Assembly: GCA_963724465.1 (NCBI GenBank)
Contig: CAVRUT010000003.1
Span: forward strand, 142,854 to 206,853
Source: an uncultured Acidobacteriota bacterium
GTDB lineage: Bacteria; Acidobacteriota; Thermoanaerobaculia; UBA5066; Gp7-AA6
Direction of reading: 5' to 3'
Length of the DNA: 64,000 bases
Within the stretch, counting starts at the first letter, position 1, and every line of letters begins with the position of its first letter. Position numbers and translations under genes: made by a program. The notes beneath the pieces were generated by a model. It saw only the letters and a list, made by a program, of their open reading frames with translations, searched no databases and was not told where the DNA came from. This document shows, piece by piece, positions 10,322-55,650 of this stretch.

Positions 10322-10344
10322 GCCGGCTTACCACCTACCGGCCG

Positions 10345-18251: not shown

Positions 18252-20864
18252 CTACTTCACGCCCTCGGCGAGAAAGAGGTCCGAGAGGATGCGGTTGTAG
18301 GAGTAGACGTAGGCCTTGCCGTCCGGCGTGATGCGGGGCGGCGAGATCGCGTTGATGCCGGCCGGGTCGGGAGGCGTCAGCTCCTTCCAGAGCTCGCGCT
18401 TCCCCGTCGCCAGGTCGAGCCGCGAGACGCGCGCGGGATACTCGCCGCGCTTGTAGATGTACAGAGACTTTCCGTCCTCGGTCCAGCCGAGCGGAGTCTC
18501 GAGGCCGACCAGCGCCGGGATCGGCGTCGGCTCGCCCCCGTCGATCGGATAAAGGTAATTCCGGCGGTCGGGTCCGACCGCGACGACGAGCTTCCCGTCG
18601 CGCGAGACCGTGCCGTTGACGGCCCGATACCCCTCCGGGGAAATGGCTCGCGGCTTGCCGCCCTCGACGTCCCGCAGGTAGAGCCGGTTGCCGCGGCCCT
18701 TCTCGGATGCCGTCACGAGGATGCGCTTTCCGTCGGGAAGGAAGTCTGCACCGGACGCCATGAGGCCCTCGATGGGAAGCTGCCTCGGCTGCCCGGCGCC
18801 AGTCGGGAGCAGCACGAGCTTGCCGCCCGTGGTGATCCCGACGAACGCGGCGACCCAGCTGCCGTCGGGCGAGATCGAGAAGCCGGTCCCGTCGCCCAGC
18901 CGCACCGGCGGCGAGCCGTCCATGTCCCGCAGGTAGTTGGAGTAGCCGGGGCCTCCACCCTCCCCCGATTCCGAAAACGCGACCTTGCGCCCGTCGGGCG
19001 AGAGGGCAGTACACGCTGGACCAGTCCAGCCACGAAAGGTCGCGCTCCTTCTCGGCGCCGGGCGCCTTCCCCAGAATGCCCGAGCGCAGCGTGTCGTGAC
19101 AGATCAGGACCCGGCCGTCCCGGGCCACGTCCTGGAGCGTCAGGTTCCCGGTCACCCGGACGAGGAGCCTTTGCGCTCCCGCGGGAGTGACCGCCCAGAG
19201 GGCTCGATTGCCGCCGACCTCGGCCGCCGTGAACCAGATCTCGCTCGCGTCCGGCGACCACGCGAGTCCGCCCTCCGTCGCAAACTCCTTCGTCAGCGTC
19301 GTCTTCTTTCCCGAGAGGTCGACGAGGGCGACGGATCCGCCGTCGTCGCCTGCTGGCGGGATGGTCCATGAACGCGATGACGCCGCCCCTCGGGGACACG
19401 CGCACGTCGCTCAGCCACCCGCTCGTGTCGTAGAGGACCTTGCCGATCGGGCACTCGAGGCGTGCGCGGCCGGCCACCTCGCGGACGATGGCAAATCCCG
19501 ATCCGTCCGAAAGCCAGCTCGCGCTCTGGACGTCGTCCTGGATCTCACGCGGCGTCCCACCGCCCGTGATGCCGATGCGCGCCAGCATGCCAATGCGCTC
19601 GAAGGCGCCGGCCGAGCGCTGGTTGAGCCCGACCGCGAGCTCGCCCGGCTGCCGAGATCGCCAGGACGTCGGCGCCCTTCAGGCCGAAAGGCCGCGATTC
19701 CGGGCTGTCGAGCCGGGCGACGAAGATCTCCGACGGGCCGGCCCTCCCAGGCTCGCCGAGTAGAGGATCGTCTGACCGTCCGGCGCGAACCGGGCCGAGT
19801 AGATCTGGCCTCGCTGGAAGGTGAGCTGGCGGAACGACGGCAGCGCGTTCGGCCGCGCCTTCTTGCCGGCAGCGAAGGCGGCGAGGCCGACGGCGATCGC
19901 CAGCGCCGCCGCCACGAGCAGCGACGGCCAGCCGCTTCCGACCCGCGCGCATCGCCGCCGCCGCGGCCTCCGTGTGGTCGGTCGTCGACGACAGGGAGGC
20001 CTCCGAGAGGTGGTCGCGGACGTCCGCGAGGTCGCGCGCAAGGTCCTTGGTCGTTCCGAACCGGTCCTCCGGGTCCTTCGATAGGCAGCGCTCGACGATC
20101 CAGCGCACCGGCGCGGGCACGCGGGCGTTCAGCTGCGACACCGGCTCCGGCTCCTCGCGGATGATCGCCGTCAGCGTCTCCGCCGTCGTCCCGCGCTCGA
20201 ACGCGCGCTTGCCCGTCGCCATCTCGTACAGAATCGAACCGAACGAGAACTGGTCCGACCGAAAGTCGAGCGGCCGTCCCGCCGCCTGCTCCGGCGACAT
20301 GTACCCGACCGTCCCCATCACCATCCCGGGGCGTGTCGGCTCTCCCGCCGCCGTCTGAAGCGCCGAGACCTCCTGGTCCTCCGGCGTCATCAGCTTCGCC
20401 AGCCCGAAGTCCAGGATCTTGGCGTGGCCGTGCTTGGACACCATCACGTTGGCGGGCTTCAGGTCCCGGTGCACGATCCCCGCCGCGTGCGCCGCCGCAA
20501 GGCCCTCGGCGATCTGGGTCGCGAGCTCCAGCAGCTTGCGCGTCGGCACCGAGCCGGACGCCGTCAGGTCCTTCAGCGTCCCGCCCTCGACGAGCTCCAT
20601 CGCGATGTAGACCGTCTCGTTCGCCGCCCCGATGTCGAAGATCGTCAGGATGTTCGGGTGCGACAGCGCCGAGGCCGCCCGCGCCTCGCGCTCGAACCGC
20701 GACCGCCGCTCCGCGTCCGCGGCCAGCTCCGCCGGCAGCACCTTCACCGCCACGTCGCGCTTCAACCGCTCGTCCCGCGCCCGGTACACCTCCCCCATCC
20801 CTCCGGCGCCGATGGGCGCGAGGATCTCGTAGGGGCCGAGCTTCGTTCCGGCGGTCAGTGTCAT
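18252..20864 (-). CDS. receptor Ser/Thr kinase with PD40/TolB-like beta-propeller region, K1 (at least 5 frame breaks)
   Basis: Kinase region: [29 protein letters not shown]...HRDLKPANV...DFGLAK...GTVGYMSPEQ. TM segment in ORF 19679..20041. Propeller pieces in ORFs 18713..19588, 17770..19155 and 18252..18923, ending AYVYSYNRILSDLFLAEGVK. Confidence 0.85.
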
Positions 20865-20876
20865 CGGGCCGCGGGG

Positions 20877-20882
20877 ATTCTA
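20877..20882 (-). promoter_or_regulatory. -10-like TAGAAT 12 nt upstream of the K1 start
   Basis: The minus strand reads GGTTAGAATCCCCGCGGCCCGATG. The same motif lies upstream of K3 (25530-25535) and the K8 remnant (38620-38625). Confidence 0.3.
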
Positions 20883-20890
20883 ACCGGGGA

Positions 20891-22922
20891 TCACTTCGCG
20901 CCGGCCACGAGCTTTTGGAAGCGCGGGTTGCCGCGAAGGGCTTCGAAATTCGGATCGATCGCGAGCCACGCCGGCGTGACGTAGTAGCCGGGAGCCTTCA
21001 CTGCGAGCTCCAGCTGGCGGACGGCCTTCTCGGGCTCGCCGACGAGTGTGTCGACCCGCGCGAGCAGATGCTTGACGTAGCCGTTCTCGGGCCAGAGCTG
21101 CACGGCTCGCTCTCCTTCCCGGATCGCAGCCTCTTTTTCGCCGAGGTAGGCCAGCGCCAGTCCGAGAAAGGCGTGGAGCTGCGCGTCGTCGGGAGCGGAC
21201 CGGAGTTGCTCCTCGCTTGCCTTTCTCGCCTCCTCGGCATGGACGCGAAGGTTCCGCGCGTCGCCCTTCAGAGCATCCGCTTGAGCCATACAAATCCCCC
21301 AGGCGGCACGATTGCCGTCGAACGCGCTCGGAGTCAGGCGAAGGAGAAGCTCTCTCTGCTCGGCGTCGAGCACCCACGCCAGATCGCCGTAGCTCGCCAG
21401 GTAGGCCACGAGGGCCGTCGGCTCGACCACCCTGGCCGCCGTGGCGACCGTGGCCCGGGCTCCGGCGAGGTTCCCCTCCGCGAGGAACGACGTGCTCTTC
21501 AACCCGATCATCCCGAGGTGATCCGGCGCCAGGGCGAGGCCGCGATCGAGCACCTCTCTTGCCTCCGCATCGCGCCGCGCGAATGCGAGCATCCGGCCGA
21601 ACAGATAAAGCACAGCCACCGAGCGGGGGTCGAGGCGCTCGGCCTCGCGAAAGCGCTCCACAGCCGCGTCGGGCTGGGTCTGCGTGCGCGCGATGCCGAC
21701 CAGGGCGGCCACGTTCGTGGGCGCCAGTCGCTGCGCTTTCGTGTACTGCTCCAACGCGTCCGCGTGGCCGATGAACCACTCGTAGTCGCCGCGAGCGAGG
21801 TACCCTTCCGGACGGTCGGGGGCGATCGCCACGGCCCTCTCCGCCGACTGACGGGCACGCTCGGCCAGGTCGGGCGTGGGTGCGGAGAACCTGTAGAGAA
21901 GGCTGGTCGCCCGCGATATCTGGGCCCAGCCGACGGCAAATCCGGGATCGAGCGCCACGGCCTGCTCATAGAAGCCCAGCGCCTTGCGCAAACTGGGCGG
22001 ATCGTTGACGCCCATCCCCCGCGACGCCTCCTCGCCTTTGAGGAACGCGTCGTAGGCGGCGAGGTTGCCAGTCGGCTTTTCGGACAGTCGCTTCTCCTCG
22101 CTCGCCCCGAGGGCTACGCCGAGCGCCTGCGCGACACGCGACGCGATGTCCGATTGCACCTGGAAGACGTCCGTCAGCGCCGCGTCGAACGGTTGCTGCC
22201 ATCGCGAGGTCGGGGCCGGCCCGCCCGACACTTCCACGAGCTCGGGACTGACCTCCACGCGGCTTGCCGTGCCCTTCTGCCAGCGCACGGTCGCCGTCAA
22301 GAGATAGCGCACGCCGAGCTCGTCGGCGATCTGCTTCGGCGTCTTCGTGGTCTTCCTGTACGGCGTCGAGCTCGCCCGCGCGATCACCTCCACGCCCGGC
22401 AGGGTCGTGAGCTTTCCGCGCACCGCGTCGGAGATGCCGTCGGCGAAGTAATCGTCCTCGGCCGAGCCCAGGTTCTCGAATGGCAGAACGGCGACGCGCT
22501 TGTGGCCTCCCCCTTCCACCGCCGCACGGCGCGGCGCCCGCTTCGTGGGCGCGAGCCAGACCCTCGGCGACCTGCGGCGCGATCTGGAGCAGTTCTTGAT
22601 CGGCAGCGGGCCGCTCGCGAGCAGCTCCCGCAGCGTCGTCCCGTCCACCAGCTCCATGGCGATGTACGGACACGCCGCTCTCGCCGCCGATGTCGTGGAT
22701 CGTGACGATGTTGGGATGGTTCAACGCCGAGGCCGACCGCGCCTCCTTCTCGAACCGCCGCAGCCGCTCCTGGTCCGACGCCAGCGACTCCGGCAGCACC
22801 TTGATCGCCACCTCGCGCGCCAGGCGACTGTCACGCGCCCGATACACCTCCCCCATCCCGCCTACGCCCAGCGGCGCGACGATCTCGTAGGGGCCGAGGC
22901 GTGTCCCGACCGCGAGCGTCAC
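20891..22922 (-). pseudogene. chimeric gene K2: kinase N-lobe remnant joined to a TolB-N-like plus TPR module
   Basis: [29 protein letters not shown]...VAIKVL...[13 protein letters not shown]...[19 protein letters not shown], then no HRDLKPxN, DFG or TM. The sequence continues [31 protein letters not shown]...VIARASS...[12 protein letters not shown] followed by ~400 aa of TPR-like repeats. At least 3 frame changes lie between 22640 and 22530. Confidence 0.7.
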
Positions 22923-22952
22923 AAAGCCTCAGAACCTTTCCCCGTCCGGCAC

Positions 22953-25516
22953 CTACTTCGCGCCCTCGACGACGTACAGGTCGTCCGCAATGATGCGGTA
23001 GTACTGGTACGCATAGGACTCGCCGTCCGGTGCCATGACCACGTTCGCCACGCCACGAACGCCGGTCGAGTCCTGGGGCGCGATCTTCTTCCAAGGCTCT
23101 CTTCGGCCCGTCGCGAGCTCCAGCCGGTCGATGACCGTCGGAATCTCTCCGGACCGCCAGATGTACAGGAATCGGCCGTCCGCGCTCCACTGGGAGAGAT
23201 GGTCCTCCAGCATCAAAGGAGCGCCGGGGACCGTCGTCGACTCCCCACCCGAAAGAGCCGCGATTCTGAGCTGCCCTCCCTTCGTCGCATAGACGAAGCG
23301 GTTACCGTCCGGCGACAGGGCCATCGCCCGGTCGGTGTAATCGTCGGCCCGCACCGGGGTGGGTTTACCCCCTTCCGGGCCGACGAGGAGAAGGGGATGG
23401 CTGGCGTTGTCCGGAGCTCGGACCAGGATCCCTTTCCCGTTCGGGAGCAGCCACGCCCACTTCGGCTCGACACCCTCGACCGGGATCTTCTTCAAGGTTC
23501 CCGCGCCTGTCGGGATCATGATCAGTTCGCGAGGCGGTCCATCCAGCAGAGTCAGCACCCATCGGCCGTCGGATGAAAGGCCAAGGGTGTTACCTTCGCC
23601 CAGGCGTACCGGCGGACTTCCATCCGTCTTCTGGAAGTAGATTCCCATGTCCTCCCCTCCTTCGGAGAAGAGGAGGAACTTGCCATCCTCCGAGATGAGC
23701 ATCGGCTGAGGTTGCGGAGGTCGCCCGAGCTCTCGCTCGCGATTCTCGCCCCGAGGCTGGCACGAGATTTCCCCGCGCCACGCACGTTGCTCGATGAGAA
23801 GGCGGCCATCGGTTGCTACGTCGTGAAGGACCAGTCCAAGACCAAAAGGAATCAGGACCCGACTCCGCCCTGACAATGACACCCCGCGAAGCGCCTGCTG
23901 GCGCTCCGAGGGACCCCCGACAAATAGGATTTCGTCTCCTCGCGGCGACCAGGCGAGCCCGTTCATCCACGGCATCTTCAGGATGTCGCTGCGCTTCCCC
24001 TTCCGGTCGTACGACGTGATTGTGCCGCCTTCGTTGCAAGCCACGAGATCTCCGTTCGGCGAGACACGAATGATGTTGAAGTCGTCGTCTTCGGCGAGAA
24101 CGGTTCCGATGGGATACTGGAGCTGGCTCTTGCCCTTCGGCATGGCAACGACTACCGCCAGATCCTCGCCGTTGGGGGCCCAGTCTGCTCCGACAACCTC
24201 TTCGAGGATCTCTCGTGGCGTGCCACCCGCGATGGGAACCCGCGCGAGGAGGCCGAACGGCGCCCACAGGTGGGACTTGAAGACCAGGACCGCGAGCTCG
24301 CCTTTGGAGGACACGCTCATCACGTTCGCTCGCGAAAGGCCGATCGGGCGCGACTCCCCGGAATCCGTGCGGACCGAGAAGATCTCGAAGGGCTTTCCGT
24401 CCCAGGACGCGGAATAGACGACGGTCCTTCCGTCTGGCGCAAAGCGCGCCGTCAGCACGTCGCCGCGGCCGAATGTCAGTTGTCGGAAGGACGGTACGTC
24501 GGTCGTGCTTCGCCGCGCCGCGAGCCATCGATCGACCAGGACGGTCGCCAGAATCAGCGCGACGGCTGCGCCGATGGCGCCGAGGACCGGGAGAGCCAGC
24601 CGGCGTCGGGCGGGGCCTGCGGTGGAGAGGGATCCGCTCCAGGTCGCCTCGGAAAGGTGATCGCGCAGTGACGACAGGTCTCGCGCAAGGTCTTCGGTGG
24701 ACGCGAATCGCTGTCGCGGCTCTTTCGCGAGACAGCGCTCCACGATCCAGCGCAGCGGCGCAGGCGTCTGGGGGTTCGTCGAGGCGATCGGCTCGGGCTC
24801 GTCGTTGAGGATCGCCGCGAGCGTGTCGATCGGCGGTCTTATTCTGGAACGCGCGCTTGCCCGGTCGCCATCTCGTACAGGATCGATCCCAGCGAGAACT
24901 GATCCGATCGAAAGTCCAGCGGCTGTCCGCTCGCCTGCTCCGGAGACATGTAGCCCTACCGTCCCCACCACGACGCCCGGCGTCGTCCCCGTCATCGTCG
25001 GCAACTGCGACGCCTCGTCGCTGCCCGACCCGGTCGACGACAGCTTCGCCAGACCGAAGTCCAGGATCTTGACGAGCCCGTCCTTCTTGACCATCACGTT
25101 CTCGGGCTTCAGGTCCCGATGGACGATGCCGGCCTCGTGGGCTCTGGCCAGGCCCTCCGCGATCTGGGGCGCGATCTGGAGCAGCTTCTTGATCGGCAAG
25201 CGGTCCGCTCGCCAGCAGCTCGCGCAGCGTCGTTCCGTCCACCAGCTCCATGGCGATGTAGGACACGCCGTTCTCGCCGCCGATGTCGTGGATCGTGACG
25301 ATGTTGGGGTGGTTCAGGGCCGAGGCCGACCGCGCCTCCTTCTCGAAACGCTTCAGCCGCTCCTGCGTCCGACGCCAGCGACTCCGGCAGCACCTTGATC
25401 GCCACCTCGCGCGCCAGGCGCGTGTCCCGCGCCCGGTACACCTCCCCCATCCCGCCTGCACCGAGAGGCGACAGGATCTCGTAGGGGCCGAGCCTCGTTC
25501 CGGCAGAGAGAGCCAT
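22953..25516 (-). CDS. receptor Ser/Thr kinase with PD40/TolB-like propeller, K3 (about 4 frame breaks)
   Basis: [29 protein letters not shown] (ATG 25516), [66 protein letters not shown], propeller to [20 protein letters not shown]. Breaks near 25375, 25205, 24950 and 24850. Confidence 0.85.
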
Positions 25517-33182: not shown

Positions 33183-35752
33183 TTCACGCCATCCACGACA
33201 TACAGATCCGCGAGGCTCCGGATATAGGAGTACGCGTACCACCGCCGGTCTGGCGTGATCCAAACGGGGCCCACGGTTGTTATTCCGGCCGGATCGGGAG
33301 GAACCAACTCTTTCCAGAGCTCCCTTCGGCCGGACCGGATGTCGAGCATGAAGATCTTGGCGGGCACCTCGCCGCGCCGCCGCACGAGGAGTGACCGTCC
33401 GTCGTCCGTCCAGGTATCCGGAATGTCGCCCACGGTGAGGCCGGGAACCAGGACCGGCTCGCCTCCGTCGATCGGATAAAGGTAGAAGCGTTGATCCGGC
33501 CCGGTGACCGCGACGTACTTCCCGTCGGGAGATATGCCCTTCGAGAAGGCACGGTAGCCTTCAGGCGAGATGGCACGAGGCTTCGCATCTTCGAGGCCCT
33601 GCACCCACAGCCGCACGCCGTGATCGGGCTCGTTGGCGGAAAACAGGACCCGGCGTCCGTCCGGGAGCCAGGAGGCCTGGCCGATCCGCAGAGCGCTCGG
33701 AGGAAATGCCTTCGGCTCTCCGGTGCCGATCGGGTACAGCACGATCCGCTGAGTCGGGGAGTCTCCCACGACCGCCAGCGCGAGGCGCCGGTCGGGCGAA
33801 AGGCTGTAAACCGCCCCCGGACCCAAACGCACAGCCGGCGATCCATCGGCCTTTCGCACATAGGCCGAGTAGCCGGCGCCGCCGCCCTCCCCGCTCTCGT
33901 CGAACAGAAGAACCTGGCCGTCGGGCGAAAGATCCCGGACGAGCGACCAGTCGAGCCATGAAAAATCCCGCTCCTTGTCCGACCCGGGCACGAGTGCAGA
34001 AACGCCCTGGCGCGCCTTGTCCTGAATCATCAATGCGCGACCGTCCCGGGACGCGTCCTCGATCGTGAGACCGCCGGTTCCCTGGGCGAGCACTCGGACG
34101 CTTCCGGAGCGCGTTGCGGCATGCAGACCTCGATTGAATCCGACGGCGGAGCCCGTGAACCACACTTCGTTTCCCGAGGGCGACCAGCAAAGCCCCTGGG
34201 CACTGGCGAAGAACCCGGTGACCGTCCGGCGCTTGCCCGAGCGATCGACGATGGCCACGGAACCTCCGTCGTCGCCCTGGATCGGGTGATCCAGGAACGC
34301 GACCTCATCGCCCCCGGGCGAGATGCGCGGATGCCCGATCCAGCCCGCCGTCTCATACAACGTGTGGCCGACGGGGAACTCCAGCCGGACTTTTCCGCCG
34401 GCTTCCCGGACCACTGCCATGCTCTGGCCGTCCGGACTCCAGTCGGCCCACTGAATATCTTCGAAGATCTCCTTCGGCGCGCCTCCGCCGGTCATGCCGA
34501 GACGGGCGAGCGTGCCCGTTCGCGTGAACGGGATCGAGATGCGGCGGCCGAGCGAAACGGCCATGTCTCCCGACCGCGAAACGGACAGGACCTCGGCCCC
34601 GGAGAGGCCGAACGGCCGCGACTCGGGACTGTCGAGCCGGCCGACGAAGATCTCCATCGGCTTTCCGTCCCAGCTCGCTGAGAAGAGAATCGTCTGGCCA
34701 TCCGGCGCAAACCGCGCCGAGCCGATCAGGCCGCGGCGAAACGTGAGCTGCCGGAAGGACGGCGGCGAGATATGACCCGCCTTCTTGCCGGCGACGTACG
34801 TGGCCGCCATGCCGGCAAGGGCCAGGACGATTCCCGCATAGAGCGGGACCGAGCGGCGGCGCGGCGCGCGCCCGGGCTCCGCCACCGCGAGGCGCGGCGT
34901 CGAGGCGCCGGAGAGCGTTTCCAGGTCGAAAGCCAGGTCGTGGGCCGAGTGGAACCGTTCCTCCGGGTTTTTCTCGAGGCAGTGCCGCACGATGCGATCC
35001 AGTCCTGGATGCACGTTCTTGTTCGTGGCGGAGAGATCCGGCGGCTCCTCCTTGAGGATCGCGGACATAGTCTCGGCCGCCGAGTCGCGCTGGAACGCCC
35101 GGCTTCCCGACAGCATCTCGTAGAGGATCGCGCCGAAGGAAAAGATGTCGCTGCGCGCGTCGGCGGATCTTCCCTTCACCTGCTCGGGGGACATGTAGCC
35201 GAGCGTTCCGAGAACCACACCGGGCTCCGTGCCGGCCGTCGGAACCTCCGTCTGCGGACCCTTCTCCTCGACCTGCGTCAGCTTCGCCAGGCCGAAGTCC
35301 AGGATCTTGACGCGGCCGTCCCTGGTCACAAATAGGTTCTCGGGTTTCAGGTCCCGATGCACGATGCCCTTCTCGTGCGCCGCTGCAAGGCCGTGGGCGA
35401 TCTGCAACCCATAGTCGATCGCCTTTCGGACGGGCAACGCGCCCCCCGCGAGCCGCGCCCGCAGCGTCTCGCCCTCCAGAAGCTCGGTCACGATGTAGGG
35501 CGAGCCTTCGTGCGATCCGAGGTCGTAGACGGCGGTGATGTTGGGATGGTTCAGACCGCCGGCCGTTTGCGCCTCGTTCTCGAAGCGCCGCAGCCGGTCC
35601 GCATCCTGCGAGAAGCTTGCCGGCAAGACCTTGACCGCGACGTCTCGCTTCAGCCGCTCGTCCCGCGCCCGGTACACCTCCCCCATCCCGCCCGCTCCGA
35701 TGGGCGCGACGACCTCGTAGGGCCCGAGCTTCGAGCCGGCGGCGAGACTCAC
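33179..35752 (-). CDS. receptor Ser/Thr kinase with PD40/TolB-like propeller, K6 (intact, 857 aa)
   Basis: ORF 33179..35752. GTG start overlaps the K7 stop. [66 protein letters not shown], then the propeller region. Confidence 0.9.
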   Translation of the reverse strand: MSLAAGSKLGPYEVVAPIGAGGMGEVYRARDERLKRDVAVKVLPASFSQDADRLRRFENEAQTAGGLNHPNITAVYDLGSHEGSPYIVTELLEGETLRARLAGGALPVRKAIDYGLQIAHGLAAAHEKGIVHRDLKPENLFVTRDGRVKILDFGLAKLTQVEEKGPQTEVPTAGTEPGVVLGTLGYMSPEQVKGRSADARSDIFSFGAILYEMLSGSRAFQRDSAAETMSAILKEEPPDLSATNKNVHPGLDRIVRHCLEKNPEERFHSAHDLAFDLETLSGASTPRLAVAEPGRAPRRRSVPLYAGIVLALAGMAATYVAGKKAGHISPPSFRQLTFRRGLIGSARFAPDGQTILFSASWDGKPMEIFVGRLDSPESRPFGLSGAEVLSVSRSGDMAVSLGRRISIPFTRTGTLARLGMTGGGAPKEIFEDIQWADWSPDGQSMAVVREAGGKVRLEFPVGHTLYETAGWIGHPRISPGGDEVAFLDHPIQGDDGGSVAIVDRSGKRRTVTGFFASAQGLCWSPSGNEVWFTGSAVGFNRGLHAATRSGSVRVLAQGTGGLTIEDASRDGRALMIQDKARQGVSALVPGSDKERDFSWLDWSLVRDLSPDGQVLLFDESGEGGGAGYSAYVRKADGSPAVRLGPGAVYSLSPDRRLALAVVGDSPTQRIVLYPIGTGEPKAFPPSALRIGQASWLPDGRRVLFSANEPDHGVRLWVQGLEDAKPRAISPEGYRAFSKGISPDGKYVAVTGPDQRFYLYPIDGGEPVLVPGLTVGDIPDTWTDDGRSLLVRRRGEVPAKIFMLDIRSGRRELWKELVPPDPAGITTVGPVWITPDRRWYAYSYIRSLADLYVVDGVK

Positions 35753-38335
35753 TTCATCCCCTCGACGAGCTGCAAATAGGAGAGCACGCGGAGATAGCTG
35801 TAGGCATACGTCTTACCGTCCGGCGTGACGACGAAACGGCTGACGGTGTTCAGGCCGGCCGCATCCGCGGGCGCCACTTCTTTCCAGAGATCCTTCTTCC
35901 CCGAGACGATGTCGTACCGATAGACCCGGGAGGGAACGCCGACGTTGGTCTGAACGAAGAGCGTGCGGCCGTCCGGCGAGAACCGAACCGGCCGGTCGCC
36001 CGTGCCGAGCCCCGCGAGCGGCGTCGGCTCGCCGCCTTCGAGGGGATAGAGGTAGATCCGCCGATCCGGGCCGCCGACCACCGCGGACTTCGAGTCGGGC
36101 GTGATCGTGCCGCGGAAGAGAGAATAGCCCTCGGGCGTGATCGCCCGCGGCTTGCCGCCCGCGAGGTCGCGGACGTAGAGCCGCGTGCCGTGCCCGGCCT
36201 CCGTCGCCGTGAAAACGATTCGCTTCCCGTCGGGAAAGAAGTCGGCGTTGAACGGGTCGAGGCCCTCCCGCGACAGAGCGCGCGGTTCGCCCACGCTCGT
36301 GGGCAGCAGAATGATCTGCGGCGCTGCCGGGTGGGCGAGCGAGATCGCCCAGTTGCCGTCCGGAGAAAAGGCTTCCGTGGCCCCTTCACCGAGGCGGACG
36401 GCTGGCGAACCGTCCATCTTCCGCAGGTACGCCGCGTAGCCCGGACCTCCGCCCTCTCCGGACTCGGTGATGAGAATCGCTCGTCCGTCTGGAGTCATGT
36501 CGGTCACGAGCGAGTAGTCGAGCCAGGAAAGCTCCCGCTCCTTCTCTTCTCCGGGGCCCCGTCCGAGGATGCCCAGGCGCGCGCTCTCGTTCGTCATCAG
36601 GACCCGCCCGTCCTTCGAGATGTCGCGGATCGTGCTGATGCCCGGCACCCGCCCGACCAGCCGCTCCTTGCCGGAGAGCGTGATGGCGTGCACGGCGCGG
36701 TTGAATCCTCCCTCGGCCGCGGTGTACCAGATCTCGCTGCCGTCCGGTTTCCAAGCGATCCCCTGCGCAGTCGCATAAAGGGGCGACAGGGCCTTCGCCT
36801 TTCCTGCCCGGTCGACGACCGTCACACGCCCCCCGTCGTCCGAAGGGTACGGATGATCGATGAAGGCCACGAGGTCCCCGCCGGGCGAAACCCTGGGGTT
36901 CTGGACCCAGCCGCTCGTCTCGAAGAGCACCTTGCCGATGGGAAACTCGAGGCGGTTCTTGACCCCGGCGTCGCGGACGATCGCGAGGCTCTGGGCGTCC
37001 GGGCCCCAGTCGGCCAACTGGATGTCGTCGAGGATGTCGCGCGGCGCCCCGCCGGCGATCGAGATGCGGGCCAGGCGCCCGGTGCGCGTGAACGGCTGCA
37101 CCCCTCGCCGATTGAGCGAGACCAGCATCTCCCCGGATTTCGAGATCGCCAGGACCTCCGAGTCGGCCAGGCCAAACGGCCGCGACTCCGGGCTCTCGGG
37201 CCGGTTGATGAAGATCTCGAAGGGCTTGCCCTCCCACGCGGCCGAATAGACGATCGTCTGGCCGTCCGGCGCAAAGAGGGATCCGCCGACCTCGCCGCGC
37301 GAGAACGTGATCTGGCGGAAGGACGGCGGGGCGACGTACGCGGACTTCCTGCCAGCGGAAAAGGCGAAGAAGCCCGCGATCGCGGCCGAAACGAGCGCCG
37401 TGCCCGCGATCAGAGGCCAGGTGCGGCGCTTGCCTTGCGCCGACACGTGCAGCGCTCCGGTCGTCGTGCCCGGTGTCGAGAGGCCCGACAGCGCCTCGAG
37501 GTCGAACGCGAGGTCGCGCGCCGACTCGAATCGCTCCTCGGGGTTCTTCTCCAGGCAGTGCCGCACGATCCGGTCGAGCCCCGGGTGGACCTCCTTGTTG
37601 GTCTGCGAAAGGTCCGGCGGCTCCTTCGTCAGGATCGCGGTGATCGTGTCGGCAGCCGACTCCCCCCGGAACGCCTTCTGCCCCGAGAGCATCTCGTAGA
37701 GGATCGTCCCGAACGCGAAGAGGTCGCTGCGTTTGTCGGCGGCTCGACCCCGCACCTGCTCCGGCGCCATGTATCCCATCGTCCCGAGGACGACACCGGG
37801 TTGGGTCCCCCCCGAGACCGTTTGCATGTCGGTCTTGCCGTCCTCGCCCGTTTCCGTCTTGAGCTTGGCCAGTCCGAAGTCGAGGATCTTGACCCGGCCG
37901 TCCTTCGTCAGGAACAGGTTCTCGGGCTTCAGGTCCCGGTGGACGATGCCCTTCTCGTGCGCCGCGGCGAGGCCCCTGGCGATCTGCACGGCGTAGTCGA
38001 TCGCCTTGCGCGGCGGCACCGCGCCCGCTGGAGATCCGCTGCCGCAGCGTCTCGCCCTCGAGGAGCTCCGTCACGATGTAGGGCGCCCCGTCCGCCGACC
38101 CGATGTCGTACACCGACGTGATGTTGGGATGGTTCAGCACGCCTGCGGCGCGCGCCTCCTGCTCGAAACGGCGGAGGCGATCGGCGTCCTGCGAAAAACT
38201 TGGCGGGAGAACCTTGATCGCCACGTCGCGGCCGAGCCGCGGGTCCTTCGCCCGGTAGACCTCCCCCATCCCCCCCGCTCCAATCGGCGCCAGGATTTCG
38301 TAAGGGCCCAGACGCGAGCCGGCGGAAAGCGTCAC
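35749..38335 (-). CDS. receptor Ser/Thr kinase with PD40/TolB-like propeller, K7 (one frame break)
   Basis: [29 protein letters not shown] starts at GTG 38335 (alternative ATG 38350). Break near 38020-38035, then [34 protein letters not shown] and an intact remainder (ORF 35749..38019). Confidence 0.85.
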
Positions 38336-51005: not shown

Positions 51006-51080
51006 GGCCCATTCGTCTAACGGTTAGGACGCGGCCCTCTCAAGGCCGAAATACGGGTTCGATTCCCGTATGGGCTACCA
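51006..51080 (+). tRNA. tRNA-Glu(CTC)
   Basis: GGCCCATTCGTCTAACGGTTAGGACGCGGCCCTCTCAAGGCCGAAATACGGGTTCGATTCCCGTATGGGCTACCA. The anticodon loop CTCTCAA gives CTC. Confidence 0.9.
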
Positions 51081-51172
51081 CGATCCCTCGGCTCTGTAAG
51101 TTTCTACCACTCAAATCAAAGGCCTTAACCTCGCGCTCGGCCTCCCCTTGCATGCTGCCAATCCGTGTGCTA

Positions 51173-51198
51173 TATACTGAACCATATGGTTCAGTATA
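51173..51198. promoter_or_regulatory. perfect 26-bp palindrome (putative ArsR operator) spanning the ArsR start codon
   Basis: TATACTGAACCATATGGTTCAGTATA. The central CATATG contains ATG 51186. Confidence 0.55.
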
Positions 51199-51551
51199 CG
51201 CGGGCCCGCCTCGATGCCTCGTTCGCCGCGCTCTCGGACGCCACCCGACGCGGCGTTCTGGAGCAGCTCGGCCGTTCCGACGCTTCGATCACGGACCTTG
51301 CCGAGAGGTTCCACATGACCCTCACGGGCATGAAGAAGCACGTCGGCGTCTTGGAGCAGGCCGGGCTCGTCACCACGGAAAAGGTCGGGCGCGTGCGGAC
51401 CTGCAAGGTCGGCCCGCGCCGATTGGAGGAAGAGACGGCCTGGATCGAGAGGTATCGCCAGCTCTGGGACGCACGCTTCGACGAGCTGGACAAAGTTGTC
51501 GAGGAATTGAAACGGAAGGAGAAGGTCGATGGACGCAAGAAGAGAGAGTGA
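51186..51551 (+). CDS. ArsR/SmtB-family transcriptional regulator
   Basis: FAALSDATRRGVLEQLGRSDASITDLAERFHMTLTGMKKHVGVLEQAGLV is a winged-helix ArsR pattern. An alternative GTG start lies at 51165. Confidence 0.8.
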   Translation: MVQYTRARLDASFAALSDATRRGVLEQLGRSDASITDLAERFHMTLTGMKKHVGVLEQAGLVTTEKVGRVRTCKVGPRRLEEETAWIERYRQLWDARFDELDKVVEELKRKEKVDGRKKRE

Positions 51552-51561
51552 GGTTGCCCCC

Positions 51562-52044
51562 ATGAAGAACCGTACGACGGTGGAGCGGAAGTCCGAGCGT
51601 GAGCTCGTCGTCACGCGAACTTTCAACGGCCCGGCGCGCCTCGTGTTCGAGGCGTGGACCAAGCCCGAGCTGTTCAGGCAGTGGTGGGTGCCGAAGTCGA
51701 TGGGAATGTCCCTGCTTTCCTGCGAAATGGATGTTCGTGTCGGGGGCAGGTACCGTTTGGAGTTCGCACACGGGGACTCACAGTCGGCGTTCTTCGGCAC
51801 GTACAAGGAAGTAACACCGCACTCGCGCCTCGTCTGGACCAATGAGGAAAGTGACGAGGGTTCCGTCACGACCGTGACCTTCGCGGAAAAAGGCGGCAAG
51901 ACGTTGCTGGTCATGCACGAGCTTTATCCCTCGAAGGAAGCTCTCGACGCCGCCGGCACCGGGGCGGCGGATGCGATGGGAGAGACGTTCGAGCAACTGG
52001 ACGAGCTTCTCGCAGCCCTGGGCGCGAGCGTGGGACGGTCATGA
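51562..52044 (+). CDS. SRPBCC / AHSA1-like domain protein
   Basis: RTFNGPARLVFEAWTKPELFRQWW...GGRYRLEF...FFGTYKEVTPHSRLVWT. This is the usual partner of ArsR-type regulators. Confidence 0.75.
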   Translation: MKNRTTVERKSERELVVTRTFNGPARLVFEAWTKPELFRQWWVPKSMGMSLLSCEMDVRVGGRYRLEFAHGDSQSAFFGTYKEVTPHSRLVWTNEESDEGSVTTVTFAEKGGKTLLVMHELYPSKEALDAAGTGAADAMGETFEQLDELLAALGASVGRS

Positions 52045-52382
52045 ACTCGTCGACCTTCCGGTCCGCCGCCTGGCTCATTCGTTCTAACTTCGATCCCTCG
52101 TGGCACACCATGAGCGAGTGGGCAATCGGTCCTCATGGCTGACCTCGCGCGCTGCTTGCCCCGGCCGGCATGGCTCACATGCAGGCCGGGGCTACCGGGC
52201 CGCGCCGTGAAAATTCGACGACGACGTTCTCGATCGGGGCGCCCTCGACGTGGGCCGTCTTGACTCGCCTCCTTGGTCCCACGACCCTGCTTCGGCAACG
52301 ACCTGCTCCGGTTCTCCGGCGCCCCCCGAAGTCACGGGTGGCGCCGGCATCACCATCCGCGCACGCGTAGCAAGACTTGGGA

Positions 52383-52459
52383 TCAAGCGGCCCGAAGCGA
52401 CTCTAGATCCCGCAGGAACTGGGCCAGCTGGTTCCATGTAAGGCCCGTATGGGCTACCA
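52383..52459 (+). repeat. tRNA-Glu-derived unit A (ends with the 16-nt tRNA 3' core)
   Basis: The core CCCGTATGGGCTACCA at 52444-52459 is identical to tRNA positions 51065-51080. It is preceded by a GGTTCCA T-loop-like segment. Confidence 0.85.
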
Positions 52460-52488
52460 GTTCAACCCCCACTCCAAGTCTCACGCCG

Positions 52489-52581
52489 CGTCCTGCGGAC
52501 GCAGCCCTCTCAAGGCGGCACCTCTGAGCGCGCCCTTTCGGGCGCGACACGGGTTCGAACTGGCGCCCGTATGGGCTACCA
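52489..52581 (+). repeat. pseudo-tRNA-Glu unit B with ~30-nt hairpin insertion
   Basis: GGACGCAGCCCTCTCAAGGCGGC [ACCTCTGAGCGCGCCCTTTCGGGCGCGAC] ACGGGTTCGAACTGGCGCCCGTATGGGCTACCA, compared with the tRNA GGACGCGGCCCTCTCAAGGCCGAAATACGGGTTCGATTCCCGTATGGGCTACCA. Confidence 0.8.
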
Positions 52582-52671
52582 GCAACCTCGTCACCATAAG
52601 CGGCGCCGTTCTACGTCCACGGCTCTCTCTGCGCCTACCTGGAATAGGATTTCCTGGCGGAGGGAATCGTC

Positions 52672-53361
52672 ATGTCTGGGAAACCGCGATCTGTAGTTCT
52701 CGTCCACGGCGGCTTCGTCGACGGCTCGGGCTGGGAAGGCGTCTATAGGATCCTGAGGAAGGACGGCTACACGGTCGGCATCGTCCAGAATCCGACGACC
52801 TCGTTGGCCGACGACGTCGCGACAACCAGACGCGCCATCGCCGCCCAGGGGGATCCCGTGATTCTGGTCGGCCACTCGTACGGCGGCGCCGTCATCACCG
52901 AAGCCGGCAATGACCCCAAGGTGGTCGGGCTCGTCTACATCACCGCGTTTGCTCCAGATCAGGGCGAGTCCGTCGCTGGCCTCATCAAGGACCCCCCGCC
53001 AGGAGCTCCCGTGCCGCCAATCCTGCCACCCCAGGACGGCTACCTCTTCCTCGACAGGGCGAAGTTCCCCGCCTCGTTCGCGGCCGACGTGGAGGCAGAG
53101 AAGGCTGCATTCATGGCCGACTCCCAGGTCCCGTGGGGCGTCCAGGCGTTGAGCGGCACGATCACGACGCCGGCATGGAAGAGCAAACCGAGCTGGTACC
53201 TGCTCGTTACCGAGGACAAAATGATCCCGCTTGCAGCCCAGCGCTTCATGTCGAAACGTGCTGGCTCGACGGTGGTCGAGGTTGGGGGCAGCCACGCGAT
53301 TTACGTCTCGCAACCGGAGGCGGTGGCCGCTCTCATCGAACGAGCCGCCAAGGAAGCGTGA
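52672..53361 (+). CDS. alpha/beta hydrolase
   Basis: VVLVHGGFVDGSGW...ILVGHSYGG (nucleophile elbow GxSxG)...GSHAIYVSQPE. Confidence 0.8.
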   Translation: MSGKPRSVVLVHGGFVDGSGWEGVYRILRKDGYTVGIVQNPTTSLADDVATTRRAIAAQGDPVILVGHSYGGAVITEAGNDPKVVGLVYITAFAPDQGESVAGLIKDPPPGAPVPPILPPQDGYLFLDRAKFPASFAADVEAEKAAFMADSQVPWGVQALSGTITTPAWKSKPSWYLLVTEDKMIPLAAQRFMSKRAGSTVVEVGGSHAIYVSQPEAVAALIERAAKEA

Positions 53362-53404
53362 CGACGAGGCTGGCCGATCGTTGAGAGAGTGAGGTAGCCC
53401 AAGA

Positions 53405-53484
53405 TCACGCGGCGCACCTCAAGGACGCAAGGTCTCGGAGGAAGGCTGCGATCTGGTTCCAACTCCGGCCCGTATGGGCTACCA
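53405..53484 (+). repeat. tRNA-Glu-derived unit C
   Basis: Core at 53469-53484. The left part TCACGCGGCGCACCTCAAGGACGCAAGG...CTGGTTCCA is homologous to units B and D. Confidence 0.85.
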
Positions 53485-54403
53485 CGAGCTTCCCGGATTC
53501 CTCAGTCACGCGCCGAGGCCTCTCCGGCCAGATCGGGCAGGAGATAATCCCCGCGTGCCAGCGACTTCCTGGCGTGGCCCGCGCGCGCCGCTGCGTCTTC
53601 TGAGCTACCTCGCACCGAGCCTTCCCGAGAGCCTCTTCGAGCTCCTCGCGGAAGCGATCGCGGCCGGAACGGGGCGCCGCGTCACCGTGGACTTCGAGAC
53701 CAGCGTCTCCGGGCCCGTGCCCGAGACCGATCCCTTTGCCTCCGGCCGCGCCGATGCGGCCTTCGTGTGTGGCCCTTCCTACGCGCTGCTGCGCTCGGCC
53801 GGAGTGCCGGTGGAAATCGTGCCGGCCGCCGCTGTCTTCGACGATCCGCGTAACCATGGCCACCCCGTCTATTTCTCGGATGTCGTGGTCCGTCGCGATC
53901 ATCCGGCCCGCGCCCTGGCGGACCTGCGGGGAGCGGTCTGGACCTACAACGATCGGCAGTCCCTCTCGGGTTGGCATCGCATGCTGGCCCGACTCGTGGG
54001 GCTCGGCCTCGGCGCACCCGAGCACTTCTTCTCGCGCATCGTCGCCTCGGGGGCGCACGTAAGATCGATCGAGCTGGTGTCCCGCGGCGAGGCCGACCTT
54101 TCCGCCGTCGACTCGAATGTGCTTCTCTTGGAGCGCCGCCGCGACCCCGACCTCGACTGCCGGCTTCGCGTGCTGGAATCCTGGGGCCCTTCGGCGATCC
54201 AGCCCGTTCTCGTCCGGTCCGCGCTCGATCCGGTGCTCAAGGCCTCGATCGCCGACATCCTTCTGGCACTCCACCGCGACACGAAGATAGCGTCCCGGCT
54301 GGCCGCCTTCGGTGTCTTGTGTTTCGCGAGCGTGGACGAGGCAACATACCTCCGGCTTGGAACGGAGGACGTGCCTGCGGGGACCCGGAGCGTGGCCTCT
54401 TGA
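53474..54403 (+). CDS. PhnD/SsuA-like substrate-binding-fold protein
   Basis: LRLLSYLAPSLPE...DAAFVCGPSYALL...VYFSDVVVRRDHP...LSGWHRMLARL...DLSAVDSNVL. The ATG 53474 of the ORF track lies inside the tRNA core repeat. GTG 53555, 11 nt after AGGAG, is the more likely start. Confidence 0.6.
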   Translation: MGYHELPGFLSHAPRPLRPDRAGDNPRVPATSWRGPRAPLRLLSYLAPSLPESLFELLAEAIAAGTGRRVTVDFETSVSGPVPETDPFASGRADAAFVCGPSYALLRSAGVPVEIVPAAAVFDDPRNHGHPVYFSDVVVRRDHPARALADLRGAVWTYNDRQSLSGWHRMLARLVGLGLGAPEHFFSRIVASGAHVRSIELVSRGEADLSAVDSNVLLLERRRDPDLDCRLRVLESWGPSAIQPVLVRSALDPVLKASIADILLALHRDTKIASRLAAFGVLCFASVDEATYLRLGTEDVPAGTRSVAS

Positions 54404-54431
54404 AGGCCATAACGTCTTCACGCCGTTGACC

Positions 54432-54511
54432 TCACGCGGCGTGCTTCAAGTCCCCGAAGTCACGGAGCAAGGCCGCAATCTGGTTCCATCTCGGGCCCGT
54501 ATGGGCTACCA
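54432..54511 (+). repeat. tRNA-Glu-derived unit D
   Basis: Core at 54496-54511. ...GAGCAAGGCCGCAATCTGGTTCCATCTCGGGCCCGTATGGGCTACCA retains the CAAGGCCG of the tRNA anticodon arm. Confidence 0.85.
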
Positions 54512-54539
54512 GATCCATCCCGGCTTCGTCGTTCCCATG

Positions 54540-54670
54540 CCGCGTCCTCGGACGCAGCCCTCTCGAAGCGACACCTTTGCTCTTTGAACCGCGCGCCCTT
54601 GCGCGCGCGTCACGGGTCACGCTCTTCGGGAATTGGTCGCTCGGGAGCGGGGTTCGAAGAGCCGTAGAGC
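54540..54670 (+). repeat. decayed pseudo-tRNA-Glu unit D' (B-like)
   Basis: CCGCGTCCTCGGACGCAGCCCTCTCGAAGCGACACCT...GCGCGCCCTTGCGCGCGCGTCACGGGTC...GGGGTTCGAAGAGCCGTAGAGCG parallels unit B, but its core is degraded. Confidence 0.55.
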
Positions 54671-54684
54671 GAAGGAGTCTCGCG

Positions 54685-55650
54685 ATGAAGCGTCTTCTTC
54701 CGGTGACAGCCCTGCTCCTGGCCTGCCTCACTCCTGCCCCCGTTTCCTCTCAGCAGGCGCAACCCACTCCGACGCCGCCTCCGGCCTCGCCGCCCGCCAT
54801 GGACGATCTTCGCTTCATCCGGATGAAGATCTCGGCCGGGGACCTCTCGAGCGCCGAGTCGATCCTCGAGGTCCACCGCGCCGCCAAAGGCGAGGACGGG
54901 GAGTACCTGCTCGGGCTCGCATGGCTCGCGCGGGGAGCGGCGCTGACGGGCGACTGGGCGGAGGCCTCACGGTACGCCAGAGCCGCCCGCGAACTCGCGG
55001 CCTCGACGCTCGGCATGCCCGCCGACTACCCGAACCACTCCGAGGCGACGTACGCGCTCGGCACGTCGATCGAGGTCGAGGCGCAGGTCCTCGTCGCCGA
55101 CGGCAAGAAAACGGAAGCGATCCGCCTCCTCGACGTTAGCTCCCGAAACCTCGAGACGGCGCCGTACAACGTGCGGGCGCGCATCTGGAAGCGCCGGAAT
55201 CAGATCGAACTCGTCGGCCAGAGGGCTCCCGCCTTCCGCGCGGAGGACCGTATCGGGCTGGAGTTCGCGGGGCTCGAGTCGCTGCGCGGAAAGCCCGTCG
55301 TCCTGTTCTTCTGGTGGCAAGCCTGCGGCGATTGCAAGCAGCAGGCGGCGGCCTTCCGCCGGGCGGTCGAGAAGTACGCTCCCAGGGGTGTCGCGTTCGT
55401 CGCGCCGACGCGCTTCTACGACGAGGACCGCTCCGAGGAGAAGGCGAGGATCGAAAAGTCCTGGAGCGACGTTTACGGCCTCGCCGGCTCGGTCCCCGTG
55501 CCGATCAGCAACGAGGCCATGCTCCGATACGGCGTGTCGGCGACCCCGACCTTTGCTTTCGTCGACCGCAACGGCCTGGTCACCCGGTACCTGCCCTACC
55601 GCATGACGGAAGAGCGACTGTCGGCGGCGATCGAGGAGCTGCTGCGGTAA
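54685..55650 (+). CDS. secreted TlpA/redoxin-like thiol-disulfide oxidoreductase with helical N-terminal domain
   Basis: ATG 54685 follows GAAGGAG. Signal MKRLLPVTALLLACLTPAPVSS. Thioredoxin fold with GKPVVLFFWWQACGDCKQQ (CxxC = CGDC) and ATPTFAFVDRNG. Confidence 0.7.
   Translation: MKRLLPVTALLLACLTPAPVSSQQAQPTPTPPPASPPAMDDLRFIRMKISAGDLSSAESILEVHRAAKGEDGEYLLGLAWLARGAALTGDWAEASRYARAARELAASTLGMPADYPNHSEATYALGTSIEVEAQVLVADGKKTEAIRLLDVSSRNLETAPYNVRARIWKRRNQIELVGQRAPAFRAEDRIGLEFAGLESLRGKPVVLFFWWQACGDCKQQAAAFRRAVEKYAPRGVAFVAPTRFYDEDRSEEKARIEKSWSDVYGLAGSVPVPISNEAMLRYGVSATPTFAFVDRNGLVTRYLPYRMTEERLSAAIEELLR

Follow-up and report, generated by a model that had tools for sequence, protein, structure and literature searches.

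The 64-kb window analysed here, a stretch of a contig from an uncultured Thermoanaerobaculia bacterium (Acidobacteriota), carries a tRNA-Glu(CTC) gene on the plus strand (51006-51080; called by ARAGORN and matched by the Rfam tRNA model at 64.3 bits), which is followed by an array of small gene-bearing units bounded by copies of the tRNA 3′ end. The last 16 nt of the gene (51065-51080, plus strand) form the attachment core on the attL side, CCCGTATGGGCTACCA, and this 16-mer is found in five exact plus-strand copies, starting at 51065, 52444, 52566, 53469 and 54496. All five are in direct orientation and four of them are repeats 3′ of the tRNA gene, just where the original prediction, made from the letters of the DNA alone, had placed them. 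The number of copies expected by chance is 0.01, with two mismatches tolerated, and five copies were reached in none of 100 shuffles. As is typical of a genomic island, the insert has the intact tRNA-Glu gene on one side and, on the other, a directly repeated copy of the tRNA 3′ end. Two decayed cores had been overlooked, CTACCA at 51104-51109 and gcgcctacctgga at 52631-52643.

Each of the four repeats had also been described as the end of an ~80-nt diverged copy of the tRNA 3′ two-thirds. This holds for the unit at 52460-52581, whose similarity to the tRNA upstream of the 16-mer reaches a local score of 18 against a shuffle maximum of 14. It does not hold for the other three: those at 53469 and 54496 barely exceed their shuffle maxima (13.5 versus 13 and 14 versus 13.5), and the unit at 52444 is within chance level. 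There are two classes of unit, type A, with three copies in the window that each close one gene-bearing segment, and type B, with one complete and two degenerate units. Scanning one genome per species for a sequence pattern gave 77 loci, of which almost all lie in metagenome-assembled genomes (MAGs) of Thermoanaerobaculia/Acidobacteriota; single loci are given below by L numbers and proteins by P numbers.

Architecture of the array

Directly after the tRNA gene lies a type B remnant, cgatccctcggctctgtaagttt (51081-51109, plus strand), in which the initial 23 nt of a type B unit precede the vestigial core CTACCA, and which matches the left ends of type B units in L073, L075 and L062. Cassette 1 (51110-52459, plus strand) contains the genes for an ArsR-type helix-turn-helix (HTH) regulator (51186-51551) and an AHSA1/SRPBCC protein (51562-52044), both assigned with Pfam, together with a non-coding stretch of about 340 nt; a type A unit with the core at 52444-52459 closes the cassette. 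Its right end (tail and core) reads ...GGCCCGTATGGGCTACCA and its left end CTCAAATCAAAGG; at the junction of a hypothetical circle, ...GGCCCGTATGGGCTACCA would be joined directly to CTCAAATCAAAGG. A near-perfect palindrome, atatactgaaccatatggttcagtatac (51165-51195), overlaps the start of the ArsR-type gene and, judging from its sequence, is probably the regulator's own operator, in which case cassette 1 would carry its own control region. The non-coding stretch (52045-52385) holds a 27-nt inverted repeat (52146-52172 and 52178-52204) and is present in L026, L062 and L076. It appears to be absent from L009 and L073, since the contiguous blastn match to these loci breaks off at about 52058, close to where the SRPBCC gene stops (cassette position 978), and the length of their ArsR units is less by about 250 nt; in both loci the unit nevertheless ends in a type A unit and core.

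The next features are the gene-free type B unit of 122 nt (52460-52581, plus strand; core 52566-52581) and a 62-nt leftover (52582-52643, plus strand) that ends in the decayed core gcgcctacctgga. Cassette 2 (52644-53484, plus strand) holds an alpha/beta hydrolase gene (52672-53361; Pfam Abhydrolase_6, 94.9 bits) and is closed by a type A unit with the core at 53469-53484. Cassette 3 (53485-54511, plus strand) holds the gene of a PhnD-like periplasmic binding-domain protein (Pfam Phosphonate-bd, 97.2 bits) and is closed by a type A unit with the core at 54496-54511. The longest PhnD-like open reading frame (ORF) begins at an ATG inside the 16-mer core (53474). Its Pfam match, however, begins at residue 52, which makes a GTG near 53555-53564 the probable start in place of this ATG; the gene ends at 54403. 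The end of the array is marked by a degenerate type B unit without a core (54512-54684, plus strand), recognised from repeat families D5, D6 and D9 and by direct reading, which had escaped notice as well.

Cassettes 2 and 3 have intact cores on both sides, and cassette 1 on its right side only. The cargo between functional-looking att cores consists of the ArsR, SRPBCC, hydrolase and PhnD-like genes and includes no gene for recombination or transfer, as in cis-mobilizable elements (CIMEs). Pfam bears out the contents first assigned to the intervals (ArsR and SRPBCC; an empty 122-nt segment; hydrolase; PhnD-like) and the TlpA-like gene that follows them. The greater use of A/T-ending codons in the cassette genes is also real, but modest: the G+C content at third codon positions (GC3) is 0.79-0.83 in the four cassette genes, compared with 0.87-0.93 in the upstream ABC ATPase, ABC-2 permease and OmpA genes and 0.86 in the downstream TlpA ORF. 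Exact-protein look-ups of the window's cassette proteins found none on record.

The gene after the array (54685-55650, plus strand; Pfam) encodes a thiol-disulfide oxidoreductase with TPR and TlpA/AhpC-like domains and is chromosomal flank, not a cassette. A homologue is found past the last array core in L062 (81.7% nucleotide identity, ~430 nt away) and in L089 (77%, ~900 nt away). The flank upstream of tRNA-Glu consists of ABC transporter (ABC ATPase, ABC-2 permease) and OmpA genes. L046 and L020 were considered as relatives with an empty site (tRNA, type B, TlpA) and rejected, since they hold other content between the tRNA and the TlpA gene.

In the 64 kb of the window, XerD, lambda Int, gamma-delta resolvase and five integrases belonging to the relevant family had no tblastn match, although a very divergent recombinase could escape these queries. 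The predicted absence of an integrase is thus confirmed with eight recombinase queries. The window has neither the integrase of its own that a tRNA-targeted island would carry nor one at the array head, as an integron would, where instead the tRNA-Glu gene is preceded by the ABC transporter and OmpA genes. Pfam detected no recombinase in the cargo ORFs of L001, L007, L009, L039 and L076, and tblastn of all fetched loci with XerD, lambda Int and gamma-delta resolvase matched L033 only, which is a different, larger island. The fact that no unit carries an integrase favours reading the array as one of cassettes.

The type A tail and its link to integrases

Each of the three type A units contains, on the minus strand, a short reading frame that runs out of the core into a tail beginning with WNQ. 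The frames are L-VAHTGLT-WNQLAQFLRDLESLRAA-stop (52383-52460; six-frame search, unit alignment and profile matches), V-VAHTGRS-WNQIAAFLRDLASLRCAA-stop (53405-53485; six-frame search) and L-VAHTGPR-WNQIAALLRDFGDLKHAA-stop (54432-54512; six-frame search and unit alignment). The first eight codons of the first frame are the reverse complement of the tRNA 3′ end; the second is matched in tblastn by the integrase fragments P0264 and P0267 at E = 0.001, and the ending of the third is also that of P0001, from an ENA metagenome. The units are alike over 60-118 nt (repeat families D1 and D2), and their minus-strand consensus in the window is L/V-VAHTG-xx-WNQ[IL]A[QA][FL]LRD[LF]xxL[RK]xAA-stop.

Several features identify the tail, at the level of sequence, as a protein-coding signature. 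The differences between type A units are mostly synonymous (CTT/TTG for Leu; CGG/AGG/AAG; GCC/GCA/GCG), and in an alignment of 32 distinct units the mean entropy is 1.41 at third codon positions, compared with 0.81 at first and 0.79 at second positions. The spacing between the complement of CCA and the tail is constant at eight codons, and the position of the stop is conserved. Conservation is at the amino-acid level and is not that of a palindrome, as it would be in an attC site; a GGAAC/GTTCC inverted repeat is seen in one type A copy and is missing from W-type tails. The window's three tails are all intact and have the stop at its canonical place; tails are decayed in some units of L024, L039 and L062.

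A scan of metagenomes with a degenerate-DNA form of the tail gave 18 loci, and 13 of these share one architecture, in which NTGG(T/C)..., the lineage-specific reverse complement of the tRNA 3′ end, spans eight codons and is followed by W-N-Q-[IL]-x-x-[WF]-L-R-D-L-x-x-L-R-x-A-A-stop. When 1.84 billion representative proteins were searched exhaustively by profile, 319 clusters were obtained at E ≤ 1e-3, nearly all of them ORFs of 26-135 amino acids with the motif at the C terminus. The commonest tail length is 18 residues counted from the Trp, and 76 of 97 short tails (78%) end in -AA. Against Pfam and NCBIfam the tail belongs to no family and has no meaningful match. A long protein family carrying the tail was sought and rejected, as a word-indexed profile search returned only 4 short ORFs and the exhaustive search returned short ORFs and integrase fragments; P0125 and P0133 proved to be repeat-protein false positives.

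The integrase fragments connect the tail with a recombinase. P0267 reads ...HDLRH...GHSQVSLTLNTY...LVVSQNFAS-WNQLDGWLRQLEGLRRTA-stop, and P0266 and P0264 are similar. In L110 and L109, ORFs that score 44.9 and 41.5 bits against the C-terminal portion of PF00589 (cutoff 27.1) continue unbroken across the core into the tail and adjoin small DUF433 cassettes; truncated integrases adjoin core and tail units in these two loci. The full-length integrase P0395 (432 amino acids, L106) reads across its core, TTGGCGTCCCCAACCGG, into a tRNA-Glu(TTC) gene and ends in ...LASPTG-FEPVLPA-stop, written also as ...LASPTGFEPVLPA-stop, and micro-ORFs of the P0395 lineage type read LAS[QLP][ST][IV]PS-WNQI... L109, L110 and P0395, in which an ORF crosses the att core, all lie outside the window's own lineage. 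Since the tail is the true C terminus of the PF00589 ORFs in L109 and L110, the type A units are likely to be attR scars of elements whose integrase gene spans attP.

A classical island is found at the same tRNA-Glu in L033/L099, which carries the integrase P0005 together with an excisionase-like (HTH_17) and a primase-like (DUF3987) gene. The integrase gene is convergent on the tRNA, and the stop lies two codons before the core, in the frame of the tail. An integrase that reads into tRNA-Glu(CTC) was sought in the 77 genome loci, where only chance ORFs do so, and the WNQ tail is absent from homologues of the L033 and P0123 integrases among the 240 matches listed. The far attR ends of the integrase islands in L099 and L106 lie off the contigs. 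Many integrases of the L033 family (P0006-P0124) have a C-terminal NGTYLAP a few residues before the stop, and the similar FNYLAPSES precedes the core in the tail-bearing fragments P0192, P0195 and P0198. In L105, a serine recombinase fragment (9878-10375, P0176; PF00239, IYVRVSTKEQ...) lies between two WNQ units, the first of which is fused in frame with the recombinase start.

In two other lineages, arrays of like units with other core sequences are found at tRNA-Glu(TTC) in L079, with four TIR/pentapeptide genes, and at tRNA-Glu(CTC) in L087, with HEPN/MNT and ParE cassettes. Wherever the tRNA that matches the core is on the contig, it is tRNA-Glu (L079, L087, L106 and the Thermoanaerobaculia loci). 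A phage or plasmid origin was rejected after searches of IMG/VR, in which the tRNA-end pattern matched one unrelated tRNA only and two tail-derived patterns had no match, and protein searches of the plasmids in PLSDB, which returned nothing relevant.

Spread of cassettes among relatives and the type B units

The ABC-2 permease upstream of tRNA-Glu is present, with 55-91% amino-acid identity, in about 50 of the 77 loci, which shows that these relatives share the same chromosomal site. The sequence after tRNA-Glu differs in almost every genome, and segments are present, absent or reshuffled across about 15 Thermoanaerobaculia MAGs. The comparison of relatives that the original prediction had called for has therefore revealed segment polymorphism, and a locus identical and syntenic in all relatives is excluded. 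In about 15 loci there are units of 385-3614 nt that terminate in a type A unit and core, and their cargo includes MarC, lipocalin, DUF6134, an OmpR-TPR regulator, DUF1579, haloperoxidase-like proteins, hydrolases, a methyltransferase and a glyoxalase.

The ArsR and SRPBCC cassette is 96-97.5% identical at the nucleotide level in L009, L026, L062, L073 and L076, whereas the ABC-2 gene of L009, L026, L062 and L073 is only 79-86% identical to that of the window (L076 is without ABC-2). Copies at lower identity occur in L034 (88.5%) and L063 (91.4%). The homology begins at the core, with CTACCA (position 51104) followed immediately by CTCAAATCAAAG, and extends to the type A core in L026, L062 and L076; in L026, L076 and L090 the same start, CTCAAATCAAAG, sits after a full core. 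The cassette is preceded by a type B unit in L026, L062 and L076, by a type A core in L090 and by a 3.6-kb unit in L009, and its downstream neighbours differ from MAG to MAG. The hydrolase cassette has a counterpart in L076 (5128-5996; 88.6% nucleotide and 93% amino-acid identity) at a different array position. Its homology starts at 52644, and the L076 start, ATAAGATTTCC, comes directly after the intact core of another unit. From the higher identity of the cassette than of the ABC-2 gene, the exact starts at cores and the varying array positions, all of them sequence comparisons, we conclude that the cassettes are mobile and have spread horizontally.

Type A and type B units also occur away from the ABC-2 and tRNA-Glu site, in opposite orientation on one contig (L024 versus L026, 909 kb; L063 versus L075, 658 kb), and in L075 the tRNA is no longer next after the ABC-2 gene. 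The layout of these displaced units suggests inversions or translocations between cores.

The type B unit at 52460-52581 is made up of a 42-nt spacer, a tRNA-Glu-like segment, GGACGCAGCCCTCTCAAGGC, a GC hairpin at the place of the variable loop, an altered T arm and the core, and by its sequence it is a copy of the tRNA 3′ three-quarters with an inserted hairpin. Relatives often have 1-5 gene-free type B units after tRNA-Glu; in L001, L030, L038, L045, L059 and L073, 2-5 of them stand in tandem with a period of 116-123 nt, and the copies within a genome are near-identical, including the spacer after CCA (L073, L001 and L045). Gene-free arrays of 3-5 near-identical units extend over L073 3128-3603, L001 5402-5878, L045 6092-6440, L038 606-955 and L030 2200-2810, and some units have two hairpins (132-133 nt) or extra T-loop hairpins (L007, L021 and L073 3604-3775). 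Judging from these repeats, the best explanation for the type B arrays is that unequal exchange between cores has multiplied a tRNA-like att scar. Type B was rejected as a real tRNA or other known RNA, since ARAGORN calls the true tRNA only and Rfam at E ≤ 10 gives tRNA only. RNAalifold predicts a cloverleaf-like fold with a compensatory change at one pair only, which is too weak to claim as covariation evidence, though type B may have a role as an RNA. In L041 (1811-1987) and L043 (~1606-1621), core copies are found 5′ of tRNA-Glu and not 3′, and L041 also has type B-like sequence.

Mechanism, alternatives and known systems

The locus is probably an accretion array at the 3′ end of tRNA-Glu, built via recombination at the cores by tRNA-Glu-specific tyrosine integrases whose gene spans attP. 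This agrees with the earlier suggestion of att scars left at the tRNA 3′ end by serial events of a tyrosine integrase. In the mechanism that we propose, the integrase gene would cross attP, and its last ~26 codons would comprise 8 codons supplied by the tRNA 3′ end, read as its reverse complement, and the conserved 18-codon tail WNQIxx[WF]LRxLxxLRxAA. Integration would split the gene into a body, on the P′ arm, and a tail, on the P arm. The body would stay beside the upstream core, at attL, and read into the tRNA or into the tail of the preceding unit; the tail would remain at attR, on the other side of the insert, as an orphaned type A unit, that is, a P-arm scar. The three gene-bearing segments of the window would then be minimal units without an integrase, composed of cargo, tail and core, and type B would be a gene-free, tRNA-derived att scar that has multiplied in tandem in relatives. 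The presence of an integrase 3′ end in the gene-closing units links them to integrase-bearing parent elements. Of the two readings first offered for the array, eroded integrations and a cassette array with tRNA-derived boundaries, each holds in part; what did not stand is that the boundaries are simply tRNA-derived, as they carry the detached 3′ end of an integrase gene.

Some observations weigh against this interpretation. Thermoanaerobaculia yielded no integrase with a VAHTG-type core and tail, the link being one of tail homology to other lineages, and the sole integrase seen at this tRNA, in L033, stops before the core. Tail-bearing integrases were recovered only in truncated form and none full-length, although clustering of the library could hide such forms. 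The left ends of the cassettes abut cores without any integrase remnant, which simple erosion of full elements explains poorly.

In the proposed mechanism, the cassettes would be discrete units, open to excision and re-insertion by a cognate integrase acting in trans. Neither the window nor about 15 related arrays contain an integrase, and on the gene content of these arrays it is plausible that one encoded elsewhere services the cassettes in trans. It is possible that cassettes are currently exchanged one by one in this way, and we put this forward tentatively. More doubtful is a widespread, undescribed tRNA-Glu-anchored cassette system parallel to integrons, in which the array would switch its recombinase from an active to an inactive form and back, or from a stable to an unstable one. 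In such a system, an integrase beside a cassette would be completed by the tail of its neighbour, one beside a bare tRNA would receive a tRNA-encoded C terminus, and cassettes without an integrase would be excised and exchanged individually. We infer that the tail swap would modulate the activity or stability of the integrase, and the sole hint that the C-terminal forms differ is the frequent -AA ending of the short tails.

Pure erosion would make the segments immobile remnants of full elements that had integrase, excisionase and replication genes and retain only one or two cargo genes and attR. We consider this unlikely. Truncated integrases do lie beside core and tail units in L109 and L110, two cores of the window (51104-51109 and 52631-52643) and some tails in L024, L039 and L062 are decayed, and debris of the same kind occurs in the Tycheposon islands of Prochlorococcus (Hackl et al., bioRxiv 10.1101/2020.12.28.424599). 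The idea of erosion put forward earlier thus stands for such truncated integrases in other arrays, but not for a cassette far better conserved than the flanking core gene: the 1.35-kb cassette 1 has the same boundaries and 96-97.5% nucleotide identity in at least five species-level MAGs, whose neighbouring core gene is ~80-86% identical where present. It also sits at different array positions, and it is implausible that separate events of erosion would have arrived at identical end points. Left ends that abut cores exactly, and hence core-to-core boundaries, the small size of the segments, three window tails intact up to their canonical stops and the horizontal spread all argue against independent erosion.

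It is very improbable that the WNQ micro-ORF represents a small protein gene in its own right (~26 amino acids), or a structured RNA or DNA element serving the cassette that carries it, and not an integrase fragment. Gene callers predict ORFs of 26-45 amino acids that start at the NTG of the CCA complement, and both the strong amino-acid conservation across phyla and the conserved stop would suit such a gene. The putative start, however, is CTG in ~30% of units, no consistent ribosome-binding site is seen by eye (unscored), the first 8 codons are set by the tRNA sequence, integrase ORFs enter the tail in frame, and the orientation to the cargo genes varies, being convergent in the window and co-directional in L079. 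Least probable of all are tRNA-linked tandem duplications by unequal crossing-over or slippage, with genes trapped between the copies and no site-specific recombinase, which match the head-to-tail type B units with their period of 116-123 nt and near-identical copies per genome including the post-CCA spacer (L073, L001, L045) and are plausible for type B amplification only, as they leave the type A units, the integrase-derived tail, the lower-GC3 foreign cargo and the spread of whole cassettes unexplained.

Site-specific accretion at a tRNA gene with units that lack an integrase is of a known kind. What is new here is a conserved, unannotated integrase-tail module that marks the units, the miniaturisation to single genes and the recurrence at tRNA-Glu in several uncultured lineages. 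The closest published parallel is provided by the ssrA islands of Dehalococcoides (McMurdie et al. 2011, PMC3146451), which stand in tandem 3′ of a tRNA-like gene and have ~20-bp direct repeats of its 3′ end. Some of these islands are without an integration module, and the integrase lies beside attL on the reverse strand and overlaps att (PMC3146451). The reading frame of dsiB finds its stop within the adjoining island or the RNA gene, and completion by the 3′ gene fragment of the adjacent island was proposed (PMC3146451). DsiB is a large serine recombinase, the islands measure 10-30 kb, and the C-terminal part that overlaps att is divergent and, in the authors' judgement, probably has no function (PMC3146451). 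In contrast, the recombinase here is of tyrosine type, the tail after the core is strongly conserved across phyla and the units are single-gene. As this post-core piece is strongly conserved and not divergent, the idea of McMurdie et al. that an integrase is completed by the neighbouring insert is directly testable here.

Accretion and mobilization of ICEs (integrative conjugative elements) and IMEs (integrative mobilizable elements) in Streptococcus have been reviewed (PMC5704250). The units described here are similar to CIMEs in being att-flanked, integrase-less and in tandem at one site. CIMEs lack integrase and transfer genes, lie between att sites in tandem with other elements, and are considered to move only along with, or by means of, a neighbour's integrase. 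The truncated integrases beside core and tail units in L109 and L110 and the horizontal spread of the cassettes would lend such mobilization indirect support here. They are usually several kb long and derived from a recognisable ICE; to our knowledge, their ends carry no conserved integrase-tail exon, and arrays of at least three one-gene units are not typical of them. The intP/intX gene of the Myxococcus phage Mx8 exchanges ~100 codons on integration. As here, integration in Mx8 and in the mycobacteriophage BPs parts the 3′ end of a gene from its body, and the C termini of the free and integrated forms differ; we know of no arrays of orphan tails bounding cargo cassettes in either phage. In the integration-dependent immunity of BPs, the split gene is that of the repressor, and the lost piece ends in an ssrA-like degradation tag (PMC4557955). 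By analogy, the -AA ending of the tails may invite the idea of a degradation tag for the integrase.

Integrons have intI with an adjacent attI and a Pc promoter at the head of the array, and their attC sites are imperfect inverted repeats that act as folded single strands. The arrays described here are similar in that anchored units of 0.4-3.6 kb carry 1-3 accessory genes, including the toxin-antitoxin modules of L087, and in that each unit ends in a family-specific recombination site and the units contain no recombinase. Unlike integrons, they have no intI at the anchor, which is a tRNA gene, their sites are not attC-type palindromes, and the cassette genes are in both directions and can have their own regulator or operator. 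In E. coli, the 178-bp repeats of tyrT, with the rtT RNA, follow the tRNA gene head-to-tail, and each ends with the 3′ nucleotides of the tRNA, including CCA. The layout of the type B units alone is similar, whereas the tRNA, the unit length and the sequence differ and integrase-type att scars are present alongside the units; the type B units of the window matched neither rtT nor any other Rfam family. Tycheposons (10.1101/2020.12.28.424599) are tRNA-targeted, cargo-carrying elements whose successive integrations are parted by partial tRNAs, with fragmented integrases and extra partial tRNAs throughout the islands. They differ from the present units in carrying their own integrase and replication module, in host phylum and in integrase families, and they are not known to have an integrase-tail signature.

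The tail …SWNQIxxWLRxLExLRxAA after the complement of the tRNA 3′ end is a searchable marker (319 clusters, no family). It could locate integration scars and small accessory cassettes in uncultured soil and sediment bacteria, in which island boundaries are usually invisible. If cassettes do move singly via an integrase acting in trans, there would be an integron-like exchange of genes in Acidobacteriota and other phyla, with regulators, hydrolases, binding proteins, toxin-antitoxin pairs and TIR-domain genes as its cargo.

Large Ser/Thr kinase genes with Tricorn/PD40 repeats adjoin WNQ units in L103 (10364-13276) and L105 (10427-13306). In the window, several ORFs at ~19545-25199 and 35749-38019, from a rough gene call, resemble kinase paralogues by their N-terminal sequence.

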